From positions 1-9,444 of the IMG/VR virus record IMGVR_UViG_2648501797_000003: a stretch of DNA of 9,444 bases, one strand, 5' to 3'. The translations under genes were made by a program, and so were the position numbers. Positions within the stretch are counted from its first letter, which is position 1. Each line of letters starts with the position of its first letter. Source of the stretch: a virus (lineage: Duplodnaviria > Heunggongvirae > Uroviricota > Caudoviricetes). Below the pieces are notes generated by a model. It did no database searches, was not told the DNA's origin, and saw nothing but the letters and a program-made list of their open reading frames with translations. This document shows, piece after piece, positions 1 to 9,444 of the stretch.

Positions 1-783
1 CTAAATCATCGCAATGCCGTAATGCTGCCTGATGCGAAATGGTCGCCGGAAACTTAAAACAGAAGCGGAAGTCATCTGTGGTCTGCTCACGCCAGCGCAG
101 GACAACCTCGGGTTCTCAACCGCGCCGATAACCTGTTTCTCTTCTGCGCTTAACGCCACCCAGAATTCCTGATACTTAACAGTTCCAAGGCGTGCGGCAG
201 ACTCGCCTTTTGCGATCAGTTCCGGGCGGCGATCATCCGATTCATGCCCTACATGAACCTCTGTCGCACTCCCTTCAATGACACGTTCGGCTTCGTCCTG
301 ATCGAAGATGCCAGCAAACCCAAATGCGAGACGCGCACACTGGATCAGCGTCTTGTGACGAAGCATACGGGTAGGGTGGGACTGCCATGGCTGAGTGTTG
401 CGTTTGCACTCTCCCATGTACTCAGTAACGATGGTCGGGTGTGTGCGGTCTTTCCGGTATATCTTGCAGGTACACGCGCCTTCTTCCTTGTCGTAGGCAA
501 ACTCCATTCCATCAAACTGAGGATGTTCGTTGATGATTCGAGCCCAGCCGTCAACGCCGACTACAGGAACAATTCCACCTTTATCCGGGAATGCATAAAT
601 CTCTTTTGTCCACGGGTTCAGTCCGTACTGGTTGGCGACGATCAGCAGTGCCGTGAACTGCTCATCAGTGACATTCCCACCCTTAAATGCTGTATTTTTC
701 AGAGTGTTCATCAGGTCAGTTCCGGCATCCATGCCGAGGCGGGAGGCAAGCTTCCCGGCCATTGTAGAAAGTGCTGTGCTCAT
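1..783 (-). CDS. bet: Bet / Red-beta family single-strand annealing recombinase (260 aa)
   Basis: Translation from ATG at 783-781 (MSTALSTMAGKLASRLGMD...LLIVANQYGLNPWTKEIYAFPDK...VPVVGVDGW..RIINE..QFDGM...CTC.IYRKDR.HP...TE.M.EC.....PWQSHP.RMLRHK..IQCARLAFGFAGI.D.DEAER) is near-collinear with lambda Bet as I recall it. SD GAGGGG lies 6 nt upstream of this ATG. Stop TAG is at 3-1. The ORF-track start at 834 adds 17 residues with no homology and overlaps the upstream gene. Confidence 0.9.
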   Translation of the reverse strand: MSTALSTMAGKLASRLGMDAGTDLMNTLKNTAFKGGNVTDEQFTALLIVANQYGLNPWTKEIYAFPDKGGIVPVVGVDGWARIINEHPQFDGMEFAYDKEEGACTCKIYRKDRTHPTIVTEYMGECKRNTQPWQSHPTRMLRHKTLIQCARLAFGFAGIFDQDEAERVIEGSATEVHVGHESDDRRPELIAKGESAARLGTVKYQEFWVALSAEEKQVIGAVENPRLSCAGVSRPQMTSASVLSFRRPFRIRQHYGIAMI

Positions 784-799
784 AGAATTCCCCTCAAAG

Positions 800-1084
800 T
801 TAAAACGGGCAGCCGGTGCGGTGGTCCCAGTCATATTCCGCCTGGGCGTAAGCTACTGCCGAGATGAGATCGTTATATGCCTCGCCAGCTGCATCGCTGC
901 GGAGGCCTTCGTATGGGCTTTTGTCCATCGGCACAGAGAAGCGGAACAGGCCTGACGGCTCTTTCGGCAGGGCGTCGATAATTTCCTGCGCCCGATCGTC
1001 AATCCACTTTTGCTTCTCTTCGGTTAGCGACTGTTCAGCCCATTTCCTTTCTTCGATAGCGTCGTATGCGCGGTAGGCGTTCAT
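800..1084 (-). CDS. gam: Gam-like host-nuclease (RecBCD) inhibitor, 94 aa from ATG 1084 (GTG at 1090 also possible)
   Basis: N-terminus MNAYRAYDAIEERKWAEQ resembles lambda GamS MNAYYIQDRLEAQSWARHY; similar length (~95 aa), charged helical character, and position immediately upstream of bet as in lambda. Start sits 7 nt after the stop of the upstream gene with an SD-like GAGGUG spanning that stop. Homology is from memory. Confidence 0.6.
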   Translation of the reverse strand: MNAYRAYDAIEERKWAEQSLTEEKQKWIDDRAQEIIDALPKEPSGLFRFSVPMDKSPYEGLRSDAAGEAYNDLISAVAYAQAEYDWDHRTGCPF

Positions 1085-1091
1085 AAGCACC

Positions 1092-2063
1092 TCAGTAACT
1101 GATACCGGTATGGGGAATGCGGCCGTCTTTAACCGCTGTAAGCACCTCGATAGCCTGATCCCGAGTAAGGCTGGTATTGGCCAGAAGAGCTTTGACGATT
1201 TCAGTGCCTACAGCCTTGCGGTGCTTAACGTCGGCTTCGCGGCGAGCCTGCTCATCGGCTTTACGTTTCTCCTCAGCCAGGCGGGCCTGTTCGCGTTGCT
1301 CTGCCTCGCGGCGGATGCGATCGGCTTCTTCCTGAGCTTTGCGGCGCTCCGCTTCGATAGCGGCCTGCTTGTCAGCCTCAGCTTTCTTCTCGGCTGCAAT
1401 GCGATCTCGCTCTGCCTGCTCAGCTTGTGCTTTCAACACAGCTTCGCGATGCGCCGCTTCTTCACGTTCACGCGGTGCGCGCTGCTCAACTTCTCGGGCT
1501 GCTGCGGCGGCTGCCATTCGCTTAATTTCTTCTTCATGGGCAATGCGCTGGCGCTCAGCCTCAGCTGCTTTATCTGCCTGCTCTCGGTCGAAAGCGTCAT
1601 TCATCAGCATGGCCATTTCGTGGTCAGACTCAATCCGAGCTGCCAGCTGCCGATCGAACTCTTCATTCATGGCCAGTGCTTCGACGTGAAGGGCGTTCAT
1701 GGCTTCTTCGGCCTTAATGCGTTCCTGCTCCGCCTCCCATTCGGTCAACGGGCGACGCACTTCATCTTTCAGTGCATCGAGACGCTCACGGACAACGCGG
1801 CGGCTTTCATCAATCTGCTTTGGCAGCGCCTTCAGCTCAGCGACCAGGGCTTTACCTGCGTTGTCGATGTAGGTTTTAGAGCGCGCGACCTTGTGAGCCA
1901 TGGATGCGATAGCATCGCGGCCTTTTTTGGTGGTCACGTCCGGCACCAGACTGCGAGCCTCTTTTTCGATCGCTTCGATAAGCGGATCGAGTTGGTCGTT
2001 ATTGGTGAAAACCGCCATCGCGTTCTTTTTCTCGATGACGACTAAATCCATTATTTCGCTCAT
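1092..2063 (-). CDS. Hypothetical coiled-coil protein, 323 aa; structured N-terminal ~110 aa, then long Ala/Glu/Arg/Lys-rich low-complexity helical region
   Basis: Long ORF from ATG 2063-2061 with SD AGGGGA about 5 nt upstream; stop TGA at 1094-1092 directly abuts the gam-like start. Central region is repetitive (AEAERQRIA..., AAAAAARE..., KAQAEQAERDRIAAEKKAEADKQAAIEAERRKAQEEADRIRREAEQ). The antisense frames are open only because of this GC-rich repetitive coding. Family not recognised. Confidence 0.75.
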   Translation of the reverse strand: MSEIMDLVVIEKKNAMAVFTNNDQLDPLIEAIEKEARSLVPDVTTKKGRDAIASMAHKVARSKTYIDNAGKALVAELKALPKQIDESRRVVRERLDALKDEVRRPLTEWEAEQERIKAEEAMNALHVEALAMNEEFDRQLAARIESDHEMAMLMNDAFDREQADKAAEAERQRIAHEEEIKRMAAAAAAREVEQRAPREREEAAHREAVLKAQAEQAERDRIAAEKKAEADKQAAIEAERRKAQEEADRIRREAEQREQARLAEEKRKADEQARREADVKHRKAVGTEIVKALLANTSLTRDQAIEVLTAVKDGRIPHTGISY

Positions 2064-2312
2064 GGTTTCCCCTGAAATTTGGTTGTAAGAATCCCGGCAC
2101 CGTATTGGCTGCCTGATAGCTCAGTTAAATTCGTGCGCTGATATCCGGGTTTATATTGCCTGGGAGTCATTAATCAATCTGGCGTGGAGTGCGATTCGTG
2201 GCTAAATCCCCCGCCGAACGCAAAGCCGCGCAGGAGGTAAAGATCTGTTTGGCTGGAAGTGAGGGCGTGGTAATGTGTTTACCTATTCTTCATTTGCTTA
2301 GGTGGCGTGAAA
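2064..2312. promoter_or_regulatory. Divergent intergenic control region between the leftward recombination operon and the rightward small-ORF operon
   Basis: 249 bp non-coding between divergent gene starts (2063 minus, 2313 plus). Candidate leftward sigma70 promoter: -35 TTGATT (revcomp of 2172-2177), 16-nt spacer, -10 TATAAA (revcomp of 2150-2155). Short repeated motifs TTGSCTG (2105, 2156, 2249) and GGCGTG (2181, 2265, 2303). Promoter calls are by eye only. Confidence 0.35.
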
Positions 2313-2510
2313 ATGCTGTATACAGTGACGTTCAATGAGACAGAGCGGAAGGAAGATATTGAACTTAGCGCGGATGTCAGGGCGGGTGATTTGCTGTCAT
2401 TAACGCTCGATGGCGTGAAAGATGACTACACGGTGATGACAGTAGGCGGTCCTATCATTGGCAATACCTGTGTCCCATCAATAATCCGGGTAAAAAAAGC
2501 TCAGAAATAA
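2313..2510 (+). CDS. Hypothetical small acidic protein (65 aa from ATG 2313; ORF track starts at GTG 2307)
   Basis: ORF with SD AGGTGG (2300-2305) 7 nt upstream of ATG 2313; first gene of the rightward operon. No helix-turn-helix evident, so not obviously Cro-like. Confidence 0.5.
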   Translation: MLYTVTFNETERKEDIELSADVRAGDLLSLTLDGVKDDYTVMTVGGPIIGNTCVPSIIRVKKAQK

Positions 2511-2519
2511 TAATGTATA

Positions 2520-2546
2520 ATCCCCTCCACAGCAGAGGGGATTTTT
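2520..2546 (+). terminator. GC-rich hairpin with short U-tract (terminator-like) that sequesters the SD of the next gene
   Basis: 8-bp perfect stem ATCCCCTC / GAGGGGAT (2520-2527 with 2535-2542), 7-nt loop CACAGCA, then TTTT immediately followed by ATG 2547. The 3' arm contains the GAGGGG Shine-Dalgarno of the 2547 ORF. Confidence 0.45.
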
Positions 2547-2729
2547 ATGACAAACAAAAAAATGACACCTGCCGAAAAGCTCAAAGCTTCGCGGAAGCGG
2601 TATAAAAAAATCTGGCTTCAACTGGATATCGCTAACGCCAAGCGATTTGGCGAGAAAGAAGTGCTTTCCGTTGACACCTACAGATCGCCCTATGAAACGC
2701 GCAAGAAAAGAGGAAGGACAGCAGATTGA
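2547..2729 (+). CDS. Hypothetical small basic protein (60 aa), possibly nucleic-acid binding
   Basis: [42 protein letters not shown]...; Lys/Arg-rich; a beta-strand-then-helix pattern ([14 protein letters not shown]) is compatible with a ribbon-helix-helix fold, but this is a guess. Confidence 0.5.
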
Positions 2730-2989
2730 CAACATCATCCTGGAACATAGCAGCCAAATCGAAAGACGAGCAGGACAAAGTCAACGTTGACCTCGCCGCG
2801 TCCGGCGTCGCTTACAAAGAACGCCTGAACATGCCGGTTGTCGCCGAAGTGGTGGCCAGACAACAGCCTGAACACCTGCGGGACTACTTCATGGAGCGCG
2901 TCCGCTACTACCGCGAGCAGAGCATCCAGCTTCCCCGCGCATCCGATCCGCGCTATCTGGAAATGGCTGAGCAGAACGCCAAGAAATAG
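2726..2989 (+). CDS. Hypothetical protein (87 aa) with putative TTG start overlapping the upstream stop (TTGA)
   Basis: ORF in track; strong SD AGGAAGG (2711-2717) 8 nt upstream of TTG 2726; the first in-frame ATG (2831) has no SD. Confidence 0.45.
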
Positions 2990-3095
2990 CGATTTCCTCG
3001 CCTATGCTCATTTTGCTTTTATCCCCGGGAGGGGCGATAATTACTTAGTCAGTCTGGACAACTGACAACTTTACCCCGGCGCCAAGTGGGGACAC

Positions 3096-3563
3096 ATGGC
3101 GCAAACACTGCAATTTGAGAAAAGTTATCAAAACGTACTGATTCCCGCAGAGCCGGGAACCAGCGAATACCTGCAACTTATCCCCGTAGGGCAACTGCTT
3201 TGCGGTGAGTTCCGCAAGCCCAGGAATTACGCATTCCACAAGAAGTTCTTCAAACTTCTGACTCTCGGGTATCACTACTGGACGCCTTCCGGTGGTCTCA
3301 TTGAGCCCGCGGAGCGTACCCTCATATCCGGTTTTATCGACTTTCTCTCATCCGACCTCGATCAGCGCGCTGCACTCCAGAACGCCGCGGAGATGTATCT
3401 CTCCTCGGTCGGTATATCCCGTTCCCGCGATATGGCGCTGCTGAAACACTTCGAATCCTTCCGCGAGTGGGCAACCATTCAGGCTGGCTTTTATGACGAA
3501 TACCAGATGCCTGACGGCAGCCGTCGTCGTGTCGCAAAGTCGATCTCCTTTCTGGCTCGATGA
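3096..3563 (+). CDS. Hypothetical protein (155 aa), nin-region-like position
   Basis: ORF with ATG 3096 preceded by GTGGGGA. Sequence feels like a conserved enterobacterial prophage protein of unknown function (possibly a DUF-type family), but I cannot name it reliably. Confidence 0.6.
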   Translation: MAQTLQFEKSYQNVLIPAEPGTSEYLQLIPVGQLLCGEFRKPRNYAFHKKFFKLLTLGYHYWTPSGGLIEPAERTLISGFIDFLSSDLDQRAALQNAAEMYLSSVGISRSRDMALLKHFESFREWATIQAGFYDEYQMPDGSRRRVAKSISFLAR

Positions 3564-3650
3564 CCAGCAGGTTGACTACTACAGCGTGAAGAGAATGCCT
3601 GTCGTCAAAGGTGGGCGGCTTGAGCTAACCATTACCGAAATGGAGTCCGC

Positions 3651-3791
3651 ATGAGCCGTGACGTTATCGAACGCATCCGCGACCGCTGGCAAAAGCTTCG
3701 CCTCCTGCGTAGCCGCGGCACCGTGCTGGTCGACTACAAAATATTACGCAATTTCGTCCGTATCTATAAGCGCCTGGGAGAAGCAGCATGA
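3651..3791 (+). CDS. Hypothetical small Arg-rich protein (46 aa), below the ORF-track length cutoff
   Basis: ATG 3651 with SD GGAG (3642-3645) 5 nt upstream; translation MSRDVIERIRDRWQKLRLLRSRGTVLVDYKILRNFVRIYKRLGEAA; its stop TGA (3789-3791) overlaps ATG 3788 of the next gene (ATGA coupling). Confidence 0.35.
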   Translation: MSRDVIERIRDRWQKLRLLRSRGTVLVDYKILRNFVRIYKRLGEAA

Positions 3792-4477
3792 CAGCTCAAT
3801 ACTTGGAATTTGTTCGCCAGCAGCTGATAGTGGCCACCGCCGATCTGAGTGGTGCGACGAAAGGGCAACTGGTAGCTCTTGCAGAGAACGCGCAATTTAC
3901 CGCTACGGCGCGCAGCCGTGGCCGGAAGAAGGTGTATAGCGAGGTGAAGCAAAAAATGGTTAACCCGGATGGACCGCCGATGAGCGGCAGCCAGTCCCGC
4001 GCTAAGGGTTCCTCAATCGCTCTCGTTCTGCCCGTTGAATACTCGACAGCCAGCTGGCGTCGCGCCCTCCTGTCGCTGGAAGACCACCAGAAATCCTGGT
4101 TGCTGTGGAACTACAGCGACAATATCCGCTGGGAGCACCAGGAGACGATAACCCGCTGGGCATGGGAGCAATTCAGCGACAAGCTGGCCGGTGTGCGCAT
4201 TGCAAAGAAAACAGTCGATCGCCTCCGTCAACTTATCTGGCTGGCCGCACAGGACGTCAAAGCCGAGCTGGCAGGACGGGAGACGTATGAATACCAGTCG
4301 CTGGCGGAGCTGGTTGGTGTAGCAAAGTCCACATGGACAGAAACCTACCTCCCTCATTGGCTGGCGCTGCGCAGCAGTTTTGTGAAGCTTGATAGCGACG
4401 CTCTCATGGCGGTAACGCGATCACGTTCACAACAAAAGGCGTCAAATTTAGATGTAAGTCTTGCAAAACCGAACTGA
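3788..4477 (+). CDS. Hypothetical protein (229 aa); candidate late-gene regulator (Q-like by position only)
   Basis: ORF with SD GGGAG 7 nt upstream. It is the last early gene, immediately upstream of a promoter-terminator-tRNA arrangement like lambdoid Q-pR'-tR'. It has no cysteines, so it is not a lambda-Q-type zinc-finger protein. The functional call is inference. Confidence 0.55.
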   Translation: MTAQYLEFVRQQLIVATADLSGATKGQLVALAENAQFTATARSRGRKKVYSEVKQKMVNPDGPPMSGSQSRAKGSSIALVLPVEYSTASWRRALLSLEDHQKSWLLWNYSDNIRWEHQETITRWAWEQFSDKLAGVRIAKKTVDRLRQLIWLAAQDVKAELAGRETYEYQSLAELVGVAKSTWTETYLPHWLALRSSFVKLDSDALMAVTRSRSQQKASNLDVSLAKPN

Positions 4478-4489
4478 AAGGCATATATT
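4461..4489 (+). promoter_or_regulatory. Candidate sigma70 promoter (pR'-like late promoter)
   Basis: -35 TTGCAA (4461-4466), 17-nt spacer, -10 TATATT (4484-4489), overlapping the stop codon of the 229-aa gene; predicted start near 4496, about 50 nt upstream of the terminator hairpin. Confidence 0.35.
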
Positions 4490-4544
4490 TCATGTAAATC
4501 TGATATCGTCGCCATAGCTTCGATTGTCGACACATAAAGAATTC

Positions 4545-4578
4545 AAGCCCGAGGTTAACGCCTTGGGCTTTTTCATTT
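4545..4578 (+). terminator. Intrinsic terminator (tR'-like)
   Basis: 10-bp stem AAGCCCGAGG / CCTTGGGCTT (one G-U pair), 6-nt loop TTAACG, followed by TTTCATTT. Confidence 0.6.
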
Positions 4579-4580
4579 CA

Positions 4581-4655
4581 GGGTCAGAAGCACAGCGGTT
4601 GTGCGTTCGGCTGTTAACCGAATGGTAGAAGGTTCGAATCCTTCCTGTCCCGCCA
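4581..4655 (+). tRNA. tRNA-Asn (anticodon GUU)-like gene, 75 nt including encoded CCA
   Basis: Hand-folded cloverleaf: acceptor 4581-4587 with 4645-4651 (6 bp plus one T-T mismatch), D-stem GCAC/GTGC, anticodon stem TTCGG/CCGAA with loop CTGTTAA (anticodon GTT at 4613-4615), 5-nt variable loop, T-stem GAAGG/CCTTC with canonical T-loop TTCGAAT, discriminator G, CCA. Non-canonical A at position 8. Confidence 0.6.
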
Positions 4656-4661
4656 AATAAT

Positions 4662-4732
4662 GGCCTGACCTGATGACGGGCTCATAATCCAATCCATCAG
4701 GGGCGCTGCTGCAACAGCGTCACAGGCCGCCA
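4662..4732 (+). other. Degenerate tRNA-like remnant (possible decayed tRNA with CAU-type anticodon loop motif)
   Basis: GGCCTGA (4662-4668) pairs with ACAGGCC (4722-4728) and is followed by G-CCA. Inside are a 7-bp hairpin (4669-4675 with 4695-4701) whose loop contains CTCATAA, and a 5-bp hairpin CGCTG/CAGCG (4704-4719). No D-arm and no canonical T-loop. Confidence 0.25.
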
Positions 4733-4789
4733 GACCAAGCCTGGGTATTTTCGGTCATCACCGACATTGCTATTACCCTCATGCTTATT

Positions 4790-4818
4790 GCCTGCCTAAC
4801 CGCAGGCTTTTTTATTTT
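4790..4818 (+). terminator. Intrinsic terminator
   Basis: 6-bp stem GCCTGC / GCAGGC, 6-nt loop, followed by TTTTTTATTTT. Confidence 0.6.
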
Positions 4819-4920
4819 CAGGGTCGCGGGAATCACCCTCGACGCTTTGTTGGTAAATCAGCCCGACGGCCCTGACCTTCTCACACACAGCTTCCCGATC
4901 TTTCATCGGAGGCGGTAACT

Positions 4921-5340
4921 ATGGCTAAGCGTATGCAAGACAAAGAGAGCATTGCCGGGATGTCCTGGCTGGTTCTGCTGATCATTGCTGGTTGGGGCGG
5001 CCTTGTCCGATTCCTGATGGATGTAAAGCAGGGCAAAGCAAAATGGAGCTGGATAAATGCTTTTGCGCAGATTGTGGTTTCGGCTTTTACCGGGGTTATT
5101 GGTGGGCTCATCAGCATTGAAGGTGGCCTGAGTATTTACATGATACTGGCCACTGCCGGTGACCAGGTTAACAGCGAGCTATGGTGGGCGATTCAGAACG
5201 GTTATATGACGGTTAAAGCCGCAGGGGTTCGTGTCCGTGAAATAGAGACCGTCAGTGATGGTTATCAGTTTTTTGGCTTCGATATCGAAAATGACTATAT
5301 CGCTGGCTTCGACCGCGGGTCATGGGGAGAGAGATTTTAA
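4921..5340 (+). CDS. Holin-like small membrane protein (139 aa) with dual-start motif
   Basis: SD GGAGG (4908-4912) 8 nt upstream of ATG 4921. N-terminus M-A-K-R-M (Met1 and Met5 separated by Lys-Arg); hydrophobic helices around residues 11-33 and 43-79; charged C-terminal region. First gene after the late promoter/tRNA region, where lambdoid holins sit. Confidence 0.6.
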   Translation: MAKRMQDKESIAGMSWLVLLIIAGWGGLVRFLMDVKQGKAKWSWINAFAQIVVSAFTGVIGGLISIEGGLSIYMILATAGDQVNSELWWAIQNGYMTVKAAGVRVREIETVSDGYQFFGFDIENDYIAGFDRGSWGERF

Positions 5341-6221
5341 TGGCGACTAACGATTTTAAACCCTTCGCTACTGGTAGCGGGGCAAACGTATTATCACAAG
5401 CTGATTATGACGCACTGTCGGCCAGAACAACTGGCTTTTTAAGTGGCAAAGCGTCTTCGGCCCAGGTCAACAAAGCTTTAAGGCAGGCATCAACTATTGC
5501 GGCGGTTGTGGCGCAGTTTATTTCTGATAACAGCGGCGATGACACCCTTGATAACGGTAATTTACCTACCTTACTGGCTAGTCTCGAAAGCGCCCTCCTC
5601 AAGTCCTCCCCTGGGCGGTTACAGAATATCGTTAGCTTTACCGCAAATGGGACCTACACCCCATCGCCAGGAACCAAACATGTAAAAGTTATTGTTACTG
5701 GCGGTGGTGGCGGTGGTGGTGGTTGTCAGGGAACTTCAGGATCTGAATCAGTTTCAGGTGGCGGCGGCGGTGCTGGTGGTACGGCCATTGGTTATTTTGC
5801 TGTAACTGAATCCAGCTATGCAGTCACTGTAGGTGCTGGTGGTTCTGCTGGCGTTGGTGCTGTCCAGGGTGGAACAGGCGGAACCTCAATCATTAACGGC
5901 ATTAGCGGATTGGGCGGAGATGGTGGTCAGAAATCAGGGATCACTACGCTGGCTGGTGGGAAAGGCGGTATTTCTATTGGTGGCTCGGTTAACCTTCCCG
6001 GAGGTTACGGCACTGATGGGCAAAATGGCTCCCTGATTATCCCCGGCAATGGCGGCTCGTCATATTGGGGCGGCGGTGGTCGTGGGGGCGCACGCGGGGG
6101 CGTGGCAGGGGATTGTTATGGTGCCGGTGGTGGTGGCGCATATGATGCTGCCATGTCTGGCAACTCCTACAATGGCGGACAGGGGAAAGCAGGGATTGTA
6201 TATATTGAGGAATATTCTTAA
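5340..6221 (+). CDS. Glycine-rich protein (293 aa from ATG 5340), tail-fibre/adhesin-like
   Basis: ATG 5340 overlaps the upstream stop (TAATG) with GGGGAGAGAG upstream; the ORF-track start at 5322 lies inside the upstream gene. N-terminal ~110 aa ordinary composition (MATNDFKPFATGSGANVLSQADYDAL...), then polyglycine tracts (G8, G5, GGxGG) separated by short variable segments. Family not identified. Confidence 0.7.
   Translation: MATNDFKPFATGSGANVLSQADYDALSARTTGFLSGKASSAQVNKALRQASTIAAVVAQFISDNSGDDTLDNGNLPTLLASLESALLKSSPGRLQNIVSFTANGTYTPSPGTKHVKVIVTGGGGGGGGCQGTSGSESVSGGGGGAGGTAIGYFAVTESSYAVTVGAGGSAGVGAVQGGTGGTSIINGISGLGGDGGQKSGITTLAGGKGGISIGGSVNLPGGYGTDGQNGSLIIPGNGGSSYWGGGGRGGARGGVAGDCYGAGGGGAYDAAMSGNSYNGGQGKAGIVYIEEYS
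5700..5723 (+). repeat. In-frame trinucleotide simple-sequence repeat (GGY)8 encoding Gly8
   Basis: GGC GGT GGT GGC GGT GGT GGT GGT read directly from the sequence, within the Gly-rich CDS. Confidence 0.8.
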
Positions 6222-6391
6222 TGGTAAGCAAGTATGCAGTCCTGAAAGAATGCGTGGTAGAAAACATTATTGTTGCTGATGATAATTACTCTCCTGATGA
6301 TTTCGAAGTCGTAAAATATAGCGACGAAACATTTTGCCAGCCAGGCATGTTGTACAATAAAGAGGATGGTTTATTTTATGATGATAAATAA
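6221..6391 (+). CDS. Hypothetical small protein (56 aa), translationally coupled to the Gly-rich gene
   Basis: ATG 6221 overlaps stop TAA 6219-6221 (TAATG); translation MVSKYAVLKECVVENIIVADDNYSPDDFEVVKYSDETFCQPGMLYNKEDGLFYDDK. Below the ORF-track cutoff. Could be a short chaperone or a fragment of a tail-fibre assembly protein; unproven. Confidence 0.35.
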   Translation: MVSKYAVLKECVVENIIVADDNYSPDDFEVVKYSDETFCQPGMLYNKEDGLFYDDK

Positions 6392-6438
6392 TCATCAAGA
6401 ATAAATAACATTATCTACATATCTACACATTACCAATC

Positions 6439-6463
6439 AACCGGCTTATGCCGGTTTTTTATT
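6439..6463 (+). terminator. Strong intrinsic terminator directly abutting the start of the 694-aa gene
   Basis: 7-bp stem AACCGGC / GCCGGTT, 4-nt loop TTAT, followed by TTTTTTATT; ATG of the next gene at 6473. Confidence 0.7.
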
Positions 6464-6472
6464 GGGGCGACC

Positions 6473-8557
6473 ATGAGTGAATACGATACCGGCAATCCTG
6501 TGCCGTCTGCATCAATACCTGATGCATGGGATAATATGCAGTCTATTGACAGGTTCGCTAATAGTAGTGATGAAACTATTACCACGCGTACAGGTAAGCA
6601 GTTAGACACTCTGCATGGCATCAATGTAAAGTCTGATAACCAACTTAATGAACAACAAGATACCTTTGAATTATCTCAATCCGAAAGGGAATCCTCTTTC
6701 GAAGAAAAATCAAATGAATTTGAATCGCGCTTCTCCTCTCAGTTATCGGCGCAGGAATCAACATTTTCAGAATCTCAATCTGATAAAGAAAACCGCTTTC
6801 AGCAGTTCCTGAATACTTCAGGATACGTGTTCCTTGGCGATTATCAGGACGGCCCATTCCAGTTTAGTGCCCGTAACCAGTACATCCGTTACGGCAATGA
6901 GTATTACCGCCTGAATGCTGCTACTGACGTCGGCTTTACGACCACCGGAACCGATGCGACCAGCTTTGCGAACGACGTTACTCACTTCGTTCTGATGGAT
7001 GGTGATACGCTTCGCCAAGACCTGGGTTCAGGCGAAGGAGCAATGAAGGTTTACCGGAACGCCTCACCTCTGGCCAGAATCATTCGCTCCTCGATTTTTG
7101 AATACCTTACTGAAGCTGATCAGCAGGCGTTGCTCACAATTCCTGGCGTTAATGTTATCGCTGACTACGCGTTAAAAAAAGCTATAGCTGATGGAGTGAT
7201 GGTACTGGATATTCCGTGGAATGTCGGTGCGTTAAATTTCGGGCTTGACCCCGCAATGCTTCCATTAGGTTTTCAATTTATAGGGTGGGGTTGCCGACGC
7301 CCATATACAATTGATGACGATAACAGTTTTCTGAATTGCGGAGTCGTCATCCGCGTAGCTGCTGGTGCAAGTTTTCCATTTTATTCAACAGGCAGGCATG
7401 TATTCCGGGATATTGTTTTTGATGGCCGAGATAAAACAACGTACCTTTTTTATTCGCCAAATACTGCAACCCAGTTCAACGGCACCCGACTTGAGGGGTG
7501 TGGATTTTATCGGTTTGCGATCGGGATTGGCTGGGCTTCAGGAGGAACAGCCAGGTACATCGGAACAATGAAAGCATATTTCTGCTCAATATCCGGAAAC
7601 GGGGATGGAGTCAGGAATTTAATAGACTCCATGATGTTTGGTTGCACAATCAATGCTAATGATCGAGGAGTGGCCCTTACCGGTGGGGCAAACAATAACT
7701 TTTTTGGAGGATGCCGGAACGAATGGAACACCGGCGATAACTGGTATGCGTACCAGTCGGTGGAGAACCAGATTTTCGGCGAACTGTGCGACAGGGCCGG
7801 AAGGGGAGGTGTGGTCGCCGGGGCGAAATCCTCATGGATTTTAAACGGCGTTAACGTCCGGCGCAGTGGTGCTAATCAACCCGTGGGTAATGACTATTCC
7901 GCAAACTTTATTATTATTGATGACGGTAAAATTGAACTCTCAGGGGTAAGAACTGGTGTCGGTGCGAATGACAGCGGTGACGGAGGGACAATCTCGCCAT
8001 CCTACAACGTATCAGCTCTTGGCTCTGGCGGGGGGACCTTGCAGGTTTCCGGAAGTGACATGACTGGTTTTGTTACTTCAGCAATTAACCAGAAGGCGAC
8101 CACGTTAAATAAGTCGATAACCGGCAACCTTGGTATGGACGACGATGTAAATATTGGTATGACCCAGGTTGTTAAAGGCAGGCGAATTATTGGTTCACAG
8201 TCATCAGGTACGTTAGCAGGCTCTGCGGGCGCAACGTTATCGCTGACCAAGACCAACATATTCCAGAATTATTTCGATACATATATTACCCGTTCAATCC
8301 TAATTGAATGTCGAATTGGTAGCCAGTCATTTGGTGACGATATTAAAATTCCCGTCAGATTCAGAAGGGAGAATCTTTATTATCTGGATATCCTGACCTC
8401 GGGAATTGTTGCCAGCTCTGCACGCATTGGGCTTTCAGGGACTGGCGTAACGGTATCATTGTCCATTAACAGCTCAACCGGTCTGGTTACTGTTCAGTTG
8501 ACAAATGTTGATGGTCTGGAAAGAACCGTTAATGTATCAATGTTGCCCTCAATGTAG
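6473..8557 (+). CDS. Tail-fibre / tailspike-like protein (694 aa); probable receptor-binding protein with beta-helix-like body
   Basis: Long ORF. N-terminal acidic Ser/Glu/Phe repeats with roughly 11-residue spacing of Phe (TFELSQSERESSFEEKSNEFESRFSSQLSAQESTFSESQSDKENRF), typical of fibre coiled-coils; central and C-terminal Gly/Asn/Ser/Thr-rich stretches resembling beta-helix tailspike proteins. No specific family confirmed. Confidence 0.7.
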   Translation: MSEYDTGNPVPSASIPDAWDNMQSIDRFANSSDETITTRTGKQLDTLHGINVKSDNQLNEQQDTFELSQSERESSFEEKSNEFESRFSSQLSAQESTFSESQSDKENRFQQFLNTSGYVFLGDYQDGPFQFSARNQYIRYGNEYYRLNAATDVGFTTTGTDATSFANDVTHFVLMDGDTLRQDLGSGEGAMKVYRNASPLARIIRSSIFEYLTEADQQALLTIPGVNVIADYALKKAIADGVMVLDIPWNVGALNFGLDPAMLPLGFQFIGWGCRRPYTIDDDNSFLNCGVVIRVAAGASFPFYSTGRHVFRDIVFDGRDKTTYLFYSPNTATQFNGTRLEGCGFYRFAIGIGWASGGTARYIGTMKAYFCSISGNGDGVRNLIDSMMFGCTINANDRGVALTGGANNNFFGGCRNEWNTGDNWYAYQSVENQIFGELCDRAGRGGVVAGAKSSWILNGVNVRRSGANQPVGNDYSANFIIIDDGKIELSGVRTGVGANDSGDGGTISPSYNVSALGSGGGTLQVSGSDMTGFVTSAINQKATTLNKSITGNLGMDDDVNIGMTQVVKGRRIIGSQSSGTLAGSAGATLSLTKTNIFQNYFDTYITRSILIECRIGSQSFGDDIKIPVRFRRENLYYLDILTSGIVASSARIGLSGTGVTVSLSINSSTGLVTVQLTNVDGLERTVNVSMLPSM

Positions 8558-8565
8558 GAGTGAAA

Positions 8566-8745
8566 ATGGAAGACGAAACAGAACTGACCGAACCGCCATT
8601 TGAAACCTGGTTCAGAGACGTGGTTGAACTGGTTAAAAATGGCGGACATTCAATGGATATTGTTGCCTATAAGGGGGAATGGGTTGATTATTTTTCGGAA
8701 GGATTAACACCAGAAGATGCGTTTATAAAAAGAATGGCTCTTTAA
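8566..8745 (+). CDS. Hypothetical small acidic protein (59 aa from ATG 8566)
   Basis: SD AGGAG (8556-8560) overlaps the stop of the 694-aa gene, 5 nt upstream of ATG 8566; very acidic (MEDETELTEPPFETWFRDVVELV...). Confidence 0.5.
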   Translation: MEDETELTEPPFETWFRDVVELVKNGGHSMDIVAYKGEWVDYFSEGLTPEDAFIKRMAL

Positions 8746-8858
8746 ATAACCGACCGAAAATAAATGTCAGGGAGTAACGTATTGATAATTTTCGACAAAA
8801 CGGCAGAGCATAGTGAAAACCGCCTGTGGATGATGGCCAACATGGGGAGGATTCTGTA

Positions 8859-9176
8859 ATGGGCTTTCCATCACCCGCGACGGATTACACGGAACAGCGA
8901 TTAACGGTTAACTCGATCTGCAATGTCGGTCCAAATACGCGCCTCTTCGAGCAATCTGGCGGTTACGTTGTGCTGGATGTCTCCCTGAAACCAAAGCAGG
9001 CCAGTCAGGTTCTGATCCAGCACGGCGGCGGGACGGAGCTTGCCACGCTGAGAGGAAGGTCGCTGATTACCGAAGATGGTGAAGCGATCGAGGGCGAGGC
9101 CCTGGACGATGTTACTGTCATCGGTGTAGTGACGTTTACTATCTGCGATGTGCGCCAGGACAATGCGGTTGTTTAG
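8859..9176 (+). CDS. UmuD'-like protein lacking the N-terminal pro-peptide (HumD-like; 105 aa)
   Basis: SD GGAGG (8846-8850) 8 nt upstream of ATG 8859. N-terminus MGFPSPATDYTEQRLTVNSIC matches the UmuD segment GFPSPAADYVEQRIDLNQLL that begins at the Cys24-Gly25 self-cleavage site (13 of 20 identical by my recall). C-terminal TVIGVVTFTI resembles UmuD DVFGVVIHVV. No GDSM serine motif seen and no umuC-like ORF downstream. Confidence 0.65.
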   Translation: MGFPSPATDYTEQRLTVNSICNVGPNTRLFEQSGGYVVLDVSLKPKQASQVLIQHGGGTELATLRGRSLITEDGEAIEGEALDDVTVIGVVTFTICDVRQDNAVV

Positions 9177-9339
9177 TTGCAGTCAATTGATGGAAGATTT
9201 CGCGTGGCAGGCGTCTTGGGGCATGGGTGGGGCATGAGAAATCAGTGAATTTCGCCAAACATTGCAAACAACGTATGTTGGATGCTATCTCCAGCCATTA
9301 AAAATGGCGCTCCTGGACGATATTTGTCGATTTTTAAAT

Positions 9340-9444
9340 TTACCGCGTCACGCAGTTAAAGTGGCGGGCATACTCTTCAAGGCTGGTGATCCCCAACCGC
9401 ACCCATTTAGGATGCGACCATTGCGGTAGACCGATGTAAATCAT
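9340..9444 (-). pseudogene. 5' fragment (34 codons plus stop) of a DUF72 / YecE-like host gene, apparently interrupted
   Basis: Minus-strand translation from ATG at 9444-9442: MIYIGLPQWSHPKWVRLGITSLEEYARHFNCV then TR-stop. This matches my recollection of the E. coli YecE (DUF72) N-terminus, which should continue EGNTT...; divergence begins near 9348. Identification from memory. Confidence 0.45.

Follow-up and report, generated by a model that had tools for sequence, protein, structure and literature searches.

A probable phage 82-type late-gene switch in a decayed prophage

Our analysis indicates, with a probability of roughly 0.9, that the DNA studied here carries a late-gene switch of the phage 82 type, composed of a gene for a Q antiterminator, the late promoter pR' and the intrinsic terminator tR'. 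We refer to the whole stretch of viral DNA that was analysed, 9,444 nt in length, as the window. The architecture of Q, pR' and tR' had been recognized in the original prediction, and it is upheld by the match of the Q protein to Pfam family PF06323 and by a promoter, a pause element and a terminator that are homologous to those of phage 82. The family membership, this homology and the conservation of the elements across relatives were observed directly.

By analogy with the biochemistry of phage 82, the switch would operate in the following manner. RNA polymerase would start at pR', at approximately position 4496, with sigma70 still bound; sigma70 would then re-bind at +6 to +14, on the element TGaTATCGT, and the complex would pause near +25. 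Without Q, transcription would terminate at tR' at approximately +75 to +80, yielding a short RNA that resembles IsrJ. When Q is present, it would bind the promoter spacer at the Q-binding element (QBE), engage the paused complex with the help of NusA, and then travel with the polymerase. The Q-modified polymerase would read through tR', a tRNA-Asn gene and the terminator at 4790–4818 into the late genes. In intact relatives, such read-through would reach holin, endolysin, terminase and so on, while in the window it would reach only a holin pseudogene and the tail-fibre and tailspike genes. Since the module is located in a decayed prophage, it may be a relic without a current role.

The decayed prophage and its remaining genes

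The whole window (1–9444) is a 9.4-kb decayed prophage located between truncated yecE and yecD/aspS, as revealed by the look-up of a chimeric 139-aa ORF. The same arrangement was seen in one complete E. coli chromosome with RefSeq annotation, and the remnant recurs in four complete genomes and many draft assemblies (369 index blocks). Comparison with two intact relatives, namely a prophage of E. coli WCHEC035148 that retains lysis and head genes (L005) and a 43.8-kb viral contig of IMG/VR (L008), revealed four junctions in the window. At 114/115, the 3' end of bet is joined into yecE; a second junction is at 2140/2141; at 3549/3550, 895 bp are missing and DUF1367 is joined to the 3' end of rusA; and at 5159/5160, approximately codon 80 of the holin gene is joined to a DUF2612 structural fragment, with DNA similarity breaking at 5160. 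We considered an assembly chimera on account of these sharp similarity breakpoints and rejected it, because the same junctions are found in complete E. coli chromosomes and many other assemblies.

A survey by PHROG and annotation detected no integrase, repressor, N, replication, endolysin, terminase or head genes within the window. The immunity region, the replication region and most of the late region are gone from the prophage, and the tail-fibre and tailspike genes are still present. The genes are arranged in the order theta, DUF1367, rusA remnant, ylcG, Q, pR', tRNA and holin remnant. The order of nin genes, ylcG, Q, pR', tRNA and holin matches that of the intact relatives, in which Q, the leader, tRNA-Asn, holin and endolysin are followed by further genes onward to terminase. 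Between 3549 and 5160, the window shares 99.7% DNA identity with both L008 and L005.

The first late gene is present as a remnant at 4921–5340 (+), in which holin codons 1–80 are fused to the C-terminal part of the DUF2612 structural gene. PHROG assigned aa 2–80 of this ORF to holin and aa 83–137 to a structural protein, and RefSeq places two pseudogenes at 4921–5340. The original prediction had referred to “late-position genes” and had missed that these are a truncated holin joined to a structural-gene fragment. Past the junction, the tail genes are intact (5322–8557, +); they encode a glycine-rich tail fibre of 299 aa, a 56-aa ORF product and a tailspike-like protein of 694 aa, and share 94% identity with Wanchaivirus PDP110P2 and with Klebsiella phage tail-fibre genes. 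These would be the only sizeable genes remaining under the control of pR'.

The best promoter-like site of the window is located elsewhere, at 2458–2485 (+), at the 3' end of a 67-aa ORF (TTGGCA-16-AATAAT; 10/12). A scan of the window found no plus-strand terminator-like sites between this candidate and tR' (4545). In the repressor-less remnant, this candidate promoter could drive theta, DUF1367', ylcG and Q.

The decay of the prophage bears on the alternative that survives best, namely that the module is an inert relic in which Q is unexpressed or has no useful target, and that the intact ORF merely reflects the recent date of the deletions. We estimate its chance at somewhat below even. The four junctions and the loss of int, repressor, N, replication, endolysin, terminase and head genes are all consistent with this reading. 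However, Q is 100% identical to the Q of L008, the surrounding DNA is nearly identical to that of both intact relatives, the promoter, pause element, terminators and tRNA are intact, and the remnant is widespread among the genomes and assemblies mentioned above. The reading concerns the present-day use of the module and not the identity of the element, and a phage 82-type switch remains the preferred interpretation of the latter.

The late promoter, pause element and terminated leader

The late promoter pR' occupies 4461–4489 (+), with the −35 hexamer TTGCAA at 4461–4466, a 17-nt spacer at 4467–4483 and the −10 hexamer TATATT at 4484–4489. A promoter of this sequence had been predicted to follow the ORF; the hexamers and spacing are present, but the −35 hexamer sits within the last Q codons and not beyond the ORF. 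The consensus score of pR' alone is 9/12, and the window contains 11 promoter-like sites compared with 8.8 ± 2.9 in shuffles, which is the level expected by chance. Therefore, the significance of the pR' match must come from conservation and homology.

As a proxy for the 82 pR', we used E. coli prophages with a Q that is 100% identical to X92588, and the leader was checked against published features. In this 82-type locus (L006), the sequence TTGCAA-17-TATATT-tcatat-AAATCTGATATTTTGCC is located directly 3' of Q. Counted from the first A of AAATC, it has TGaTATTTT at +6 to +14, GCC at +15–17 and U at +25. These features coincide exactly with those published for 82 pR', which has a QBE between −35 and −10 and a native pause at +25 (PMC4914094), together with GCC at +15–17, U at +25 and an extended −10-like element (PMC5001585).

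The elements of the window occupy the same register as those of the 82-type leader. In the initial transcribed region (4496–4521, +), with a putative +1 at A4496, the extended −10-like pause element TGaTATCGT is found at +6 to +14 (TG at 4501–4502, TATCGT at 4504–4509), followed by a GC-rich discriminator, CGC, at +15–17 (4510–4512) and U at +25 (4520). By analogy with phage 82, a sigma-dependent pause is predicted at +25/+26 (U4520 and C4521), and the spacer at 4467–4483 would be the position of the QBE. Hence the sequence elements of an 82-type qut site are present in the published register, the QBE and the pause being predicted. A full-text literature search for the leader sequence AAATCTGATAT returned unrelated papers only.

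In phage 82, 6 of the 17 nucleotides of the spacer, the presumed QBE position, are different. Conservation of the spacer is ambiguous, because its first 11 nt double as the last Q codons and the stop codon (KPN-stop or KLD-stop). Among the relatives, the spacer occurs in two main versions, AACCGAACTGAAA.. and AACTGGATT[AG]AA... Gifsy-1 keeps the second version (AACTGGATT[AG]AA), though no Q gene overlaps the spacer there.

Scanning of IMG/VR with the Q alignment yielded 80 loci, and TTGCAA-17-(T/C)ATATT was present in every locus with sequence downstream of Q. From these loci and reference phages, 66 unique leaders were drawn, whose invariant transcribed columns are T+6, G+7, A+8, T+9, A+10 and T+14. 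The invariant columns (TGATA...T) were not imposed by the search pattern, and they fit TGnTAnnnT, the skeleton formed by the key residues of an extended −10 element. Of the 66 leaders, 65 have a hairpin followed by a T-run; the median starting position of the stem is +48, and the terminator stems belong to several unrelated sequence types. Unrelated stems at a fixed place are the mark of selection that maintains a terminator there, and not any particular sequence. Furthermore, among 5426 complete E. coli genomes, 1127 contain some part of 4455–4580; most of these matches span 4456–4506 only (promoter and pause element), and among the E. coli matches listed, a Q gene is annotated under every one.

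The tR' intrinsic terminator (4545–4575, +) consists of an 11-bp stem at 4545–4570 and a T-tract (TTTTT) at 4571–4575. Its hairpin has a folding energy of −18.2 kcal/mol (z = −5.6), and 0 of 200 shuffles fold as well. With +1 at A4496, the stem begins at +50, in agreement with the strong terminator that had been predicted approximately 50 nt past the start. In the 82-type locus, following the 82-identical Q, the terminator is AAGCTCGAGGTTTAAAGCCTTGGGCTTTT; past the promoter of this locus there is a hairpin, then AAGCTCGAGGTTTAAAGCCTTGGGCTTTTCTGTTTC and, approximately 100 nt later, CCAGCTACATGCTGGCTTTTTTATT. The tR' stem of the window is near-identical to the t82-type stem, with few positions changed.

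A tRNA-Asn gene (GTT; 4581–4655, +) lies between the first two terminators and had been missed in the first reading of the DNA. It was detected by ARAGORN and by the Rfam tRNA model (61.4 bits), and is annotated in relatives. The gene begins 10 nt past the tR' stem, too close for it to have a separate promoter. Just 3' of the gene, at 4662–4733 (+), there is a tRNA-like remnant (MFE −32.4 kcal/mol, z = −3.2) whose acceptor-like stem has 6 bp and ends in GCCA, whose third arm has 7 bp and whose long arm includes CTCATAA, resembling the anticodon loop of a Met tRNA. This remnant was called by neither ARAGORN nor Rfam, and other tRNA genes (Met, Lys, Arg) occupy its place in related phages.

The second intrinsic terminator of the late leader (4790–4818, +) is located upstream of holin and consists of the stem GCCTGC/GCAGGC and TTTTTTATTTT. 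The stem (4790–4807) with its T-run has a folding energy of −11.2 kcal/mol (z = −2.9). The 82-type locus has a counterpart, CCAGC..GCTGGCTTTTTTATT, in the corresponding position, and a second terminator of either stem type was found in 20 of 89 loci. A third hairpin with a T-run is at 6439–6463 (+; stem 6439–6456; −12.2 kcal/mol, z = −3.2). It lies in tail-fibre DNA past the 5159/5160 junction and was brought near the leader by the deletion. Thus, the two further terminators of the original prediction, at 4790–4818 and 6439–6463, are both present, but no plus-strand site corresponding to its “hairpin logic upstream” was found between 1919 and 4545. The accompanying argument from terminators in series holds for tR' and the terminator at 4790, which belong to the conserved 82-type leader, but not for the hairpin at 6439.

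The predicted short terminated transcript of pR', approximately 75–80 nt in length (4493–4575, +), comprises a 5' single strand, a weak hairpin at 4501–4529 and the terminator hairpin (MFE −26.4 kcal/mol, z = −3.9). The Rfam model RF01393 (isrJ) matches 4493–4571 with 57.1 bits against a gathering score of 37, covering model positions 1–75 of 75. IsrJ is a 74-nt RNA of the Salmonella prophage Gifsy-1 that was detected experimentally and is driven by its own promoter on a plasmid; it affects invasion and effector translocation in Salmonella (PMC2330248). Within the IsrJ family, Hfq binding and regulation in trans are known for Salmonella IsrJ alone (PMC2330248). The detection of IsrJ and its expression from the plasmid support the view that the homologous promoter and terminator are active in vivo. 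The isrJ model gave no match in the 82-type locus, even at an E-value threshold, and thus covers only the leader body of the window and Gifsy type; the promoter, start region and terminator of the window and the 82-type locus align by eye. Weak Rfam matches to MicC, anti-hemB and Acido-Lenti-1 over the terminator were far under their gathering scores and were discarded.

The IsrJ promoter of Gifsy-1 shares TTGCAA...TATATT and TGTAAATCTGATATCGTCGCCATAGCTTC with the window, and a tRNA gene follows in both. Gifsy-1 differs from the window in that its terminator stem is of another sequence type and that a P1-like c4/IsrK-anrP module lies between antQ and IsrJ. This stretch (3198–4121 of NC_010392, L002) contains Rfam matches to c4-a1b1 (3198–3250), isrK (3211–3287) and C4 antisense RNA (3313–3396), then the antirepressor gene anrP, and afterwards IsrJ and the tRNA. 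Because of this array, IsrK looks like part of a P1/P7-type c4–ant immunity module. This suggests that a P1-like c4–ant module was inserted between the Gifsy-1 Q gene and its late promoter. We infer from these sequences that the pR' leader of phage 82 is homologous to IsrJ rather than to IsrK, and that IsrJ is itself a terminated pR' leader. In the published work on IsrJ, IsrK and StxS that we examined, IsrJ is not described as a late-promoter leader. In a close relative, the Klebsiella phage ST11-VIM1phi8.1 (L001), an Rfam STnc100 match (6843–7035, 85 bits) is located between the IsrJ-like leader and tRNA-Asn. This match overlaps a “hypothetical protein” on the opposite strand, and the segment is missing from the window.

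Lambda 6S RNA and StxS are known analogues of a terminated pR' leader (PMC7547250). StxS is a short RNA that results from tR' termination downstream of pR', is abundant in lysogens and is bound by Hfq (PMC7547250). It differs from the leader described here in that it is processed from a longer terminated transcript and that a function in trans has been shown for it.

These RNAs bear on a second alternative, in which the promoter–terminator unit serves mainly as an independent sRNA gene of the IsrJ family, encoding an Hfq-binding trans regulator, and the adjacency to Q is incidental or secondary. We regard this as quite improbable. The isrJ match above the gathering score, the action of IsrJ on Salmonella invasion and effector translocation (PMC2330248), the parting of the Gifsy-1 IsrJ unit from antQ by the c4–ant insertion, and the ability of StxS, a pR'–tR' RNA, to act in trans (PMC7547250) would all fit such a gene. 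However, the best-conserved parts of the unit are the promoter and the TGnTAnnnT pause element and not the RNA body, and the unit follows a PF06323 gene in all loci of the 80-locus IMG/VR set with downstream sequence. In addition, the first hairpin and the terminator are swapped for unrelated sequences in relatives, which argues against a conserved seed or target. An sRNA and an antitermination switch are compatible and not mutually exclusive. It is also conceivable, though we hold it to be unlikely, that the pR'–tR' unit does more than yield a by-product of the switch. In this case, IsrJ-family RNAs, as terminated Q82-type leaders, would correspond to lambda 6S RNA and StxS, and the E. coli host would have kept the intact block of Q, promoter, sRNA and tRNA-Asn, while most of the prophage was lost, since the sRNA, the tRNA or Q-controlled tail-fibre expression is of use to it.

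The Q protein and comparison with other late switches

The Q gene (3788–4477, +) starts with ATG and encodes a protein of 229 aa with 3 His and 0 Cys, which confirms the cysteine-free ORF of the original prediction. Its ATG overlaps the stop codon (ATGA) of a 46-aa ylcG-like ORF at 3651–3791 (+), which was assigned to phrog_2705 and PF26818 (Phage_YlcG) and is named “YlcG family protein” in RefSeq. PF06323 (Phage_antiter_Q) is the sole Pfam family for the 229-aa protein, with 277.4 bits against a cut-off of 25 (E = 1e-82); Q residues 4–220 align with profile positions 1–217 of 220. The protein also matches phrog_304, “anti-termination protein Q-like” (E = 7e-95).

BLASTP analysis showed that Q of phage 82 (X92588) and the window Q are identical at 135 of 227 residues (59%) in a gapless alignment (E = 5e-101), and a tblastn search of phage records, which also found X92588, revealed 57% identity to AntQ of Gifsy-1 (STM2617). 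In a large protein collection, 2771 homologues were found, which are called “bacteriophage antitermination protein Q” wherever the source names them, and RefSeq already gives this name to the exact protein of the window. The Q protein of phage 82 is likewise 229 aa in length and has no cysteine. The lack of cysteine in the window Q is thus unremarkable, and appears from the sequences to be normal for the phage 82 clade. A zinc site was considered in distant PF06323 members, in which some columns are Cys in a quarter to three quarters of sequences; it was rejected, as there were no CxxC pairs.

Yin and Ebright distinguished three families of Q proteins, namely Q21 (PF06530), lambda Q (PF03589) and Q82 (PF06323) (PMC9388147). 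The HMM comparison with these families that had been proposed at the outset assigned the window Q to Q82. The PF06530 profile gave no match, and neither a PF03589 match nor the Cys4 zinc finger of the lambda family was found in the protein, in accordance with the earlier claim that it is not a lambda-type zinc-binding Q. Searches of NCBIfam and of PDB sequences with the 229-aa protein gave no match, and no solved PF06323 member was found by the latter search. In structure prediction, the fold of the window Q was nearest to lambda Q and AlpA. The model suggests a Q-like fold minus the lambda zinc finger, as Wen et al. had proposed from an AlphaFold model of 82 Q (PMC9371919). A closed nozzle in Q82-type proteins has been posed as a question (PMC9388147).

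The original suggestion that the protein represents a separate, fourth Q family, or else some other late regulator, is hardly credible, since its lack of cysteine and of PDB and NCBIfam matches is set against full-length PF06323 and phrog_304 matches, the gapless identity to the cysteine-free 82 Q, cis elements homologous to 82 pR' and t82, and the RefSeq name Q. Judged by its sequence, the window Q is a typical antiterminator of the PF06323/Q82 family, already known and annotated.

Beyond the Pfam family, the length and the lack of cysteine of Q, phage 82 has in common with the window the overlap of ylcG (orf45) and Q, the −35 and −10 hexamers with their spacing, the AAATCTGATAT start region and the extended −10-like pause element. 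The GC-rich +15–17, U at +25, the near-identical terminator stem and the second terminator before holin are also shared. In contrast, 41% of the Q residues differ and the first leader hairpin is of another sequence; a tRNA-Asn between the two terminators and the deletion of the late operon are features of the window only.

Lambda follows the same logic, with a Q gene, a constitutive late promoter, a sigma70-dependent promoter-proximal pause, a short terminated RNA and processive antitermination into the lysis genes, and the predicted fold of the window Q resembles that of lambda Q. However, lambda Q belongs to PF03589, has no sequence similarity to the window Q and carries a Cys4 zinc finger. 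The pause in lambda is at +16/17 and not at +25, and the leader is approximately 194 nt (PMC4914094). AlpA of Pseudomonas aeruginosa has 13% sequence identity to the window Q, belongs to another family, is host-encoded and uses another DNA element.

The Q family of phage 82 was described in 1987–1990. The module in the window was correctly recognized as Q–pR'–tR', and it is a typical representative of the phage 82 family that is already in RefSeq. An 82-type late promoter appears to produce IsrJ, the Salmonella “island” sRNA, as its terminated leader; the reported expression and virulence phenotype of this RNA would then have to be seen in the light of phage regulation. Furthermore, the 66 leaders, with their invariant TGATA...T and interchangeable terminators, constitute a comparative data set bearing on the loading site of Q82.
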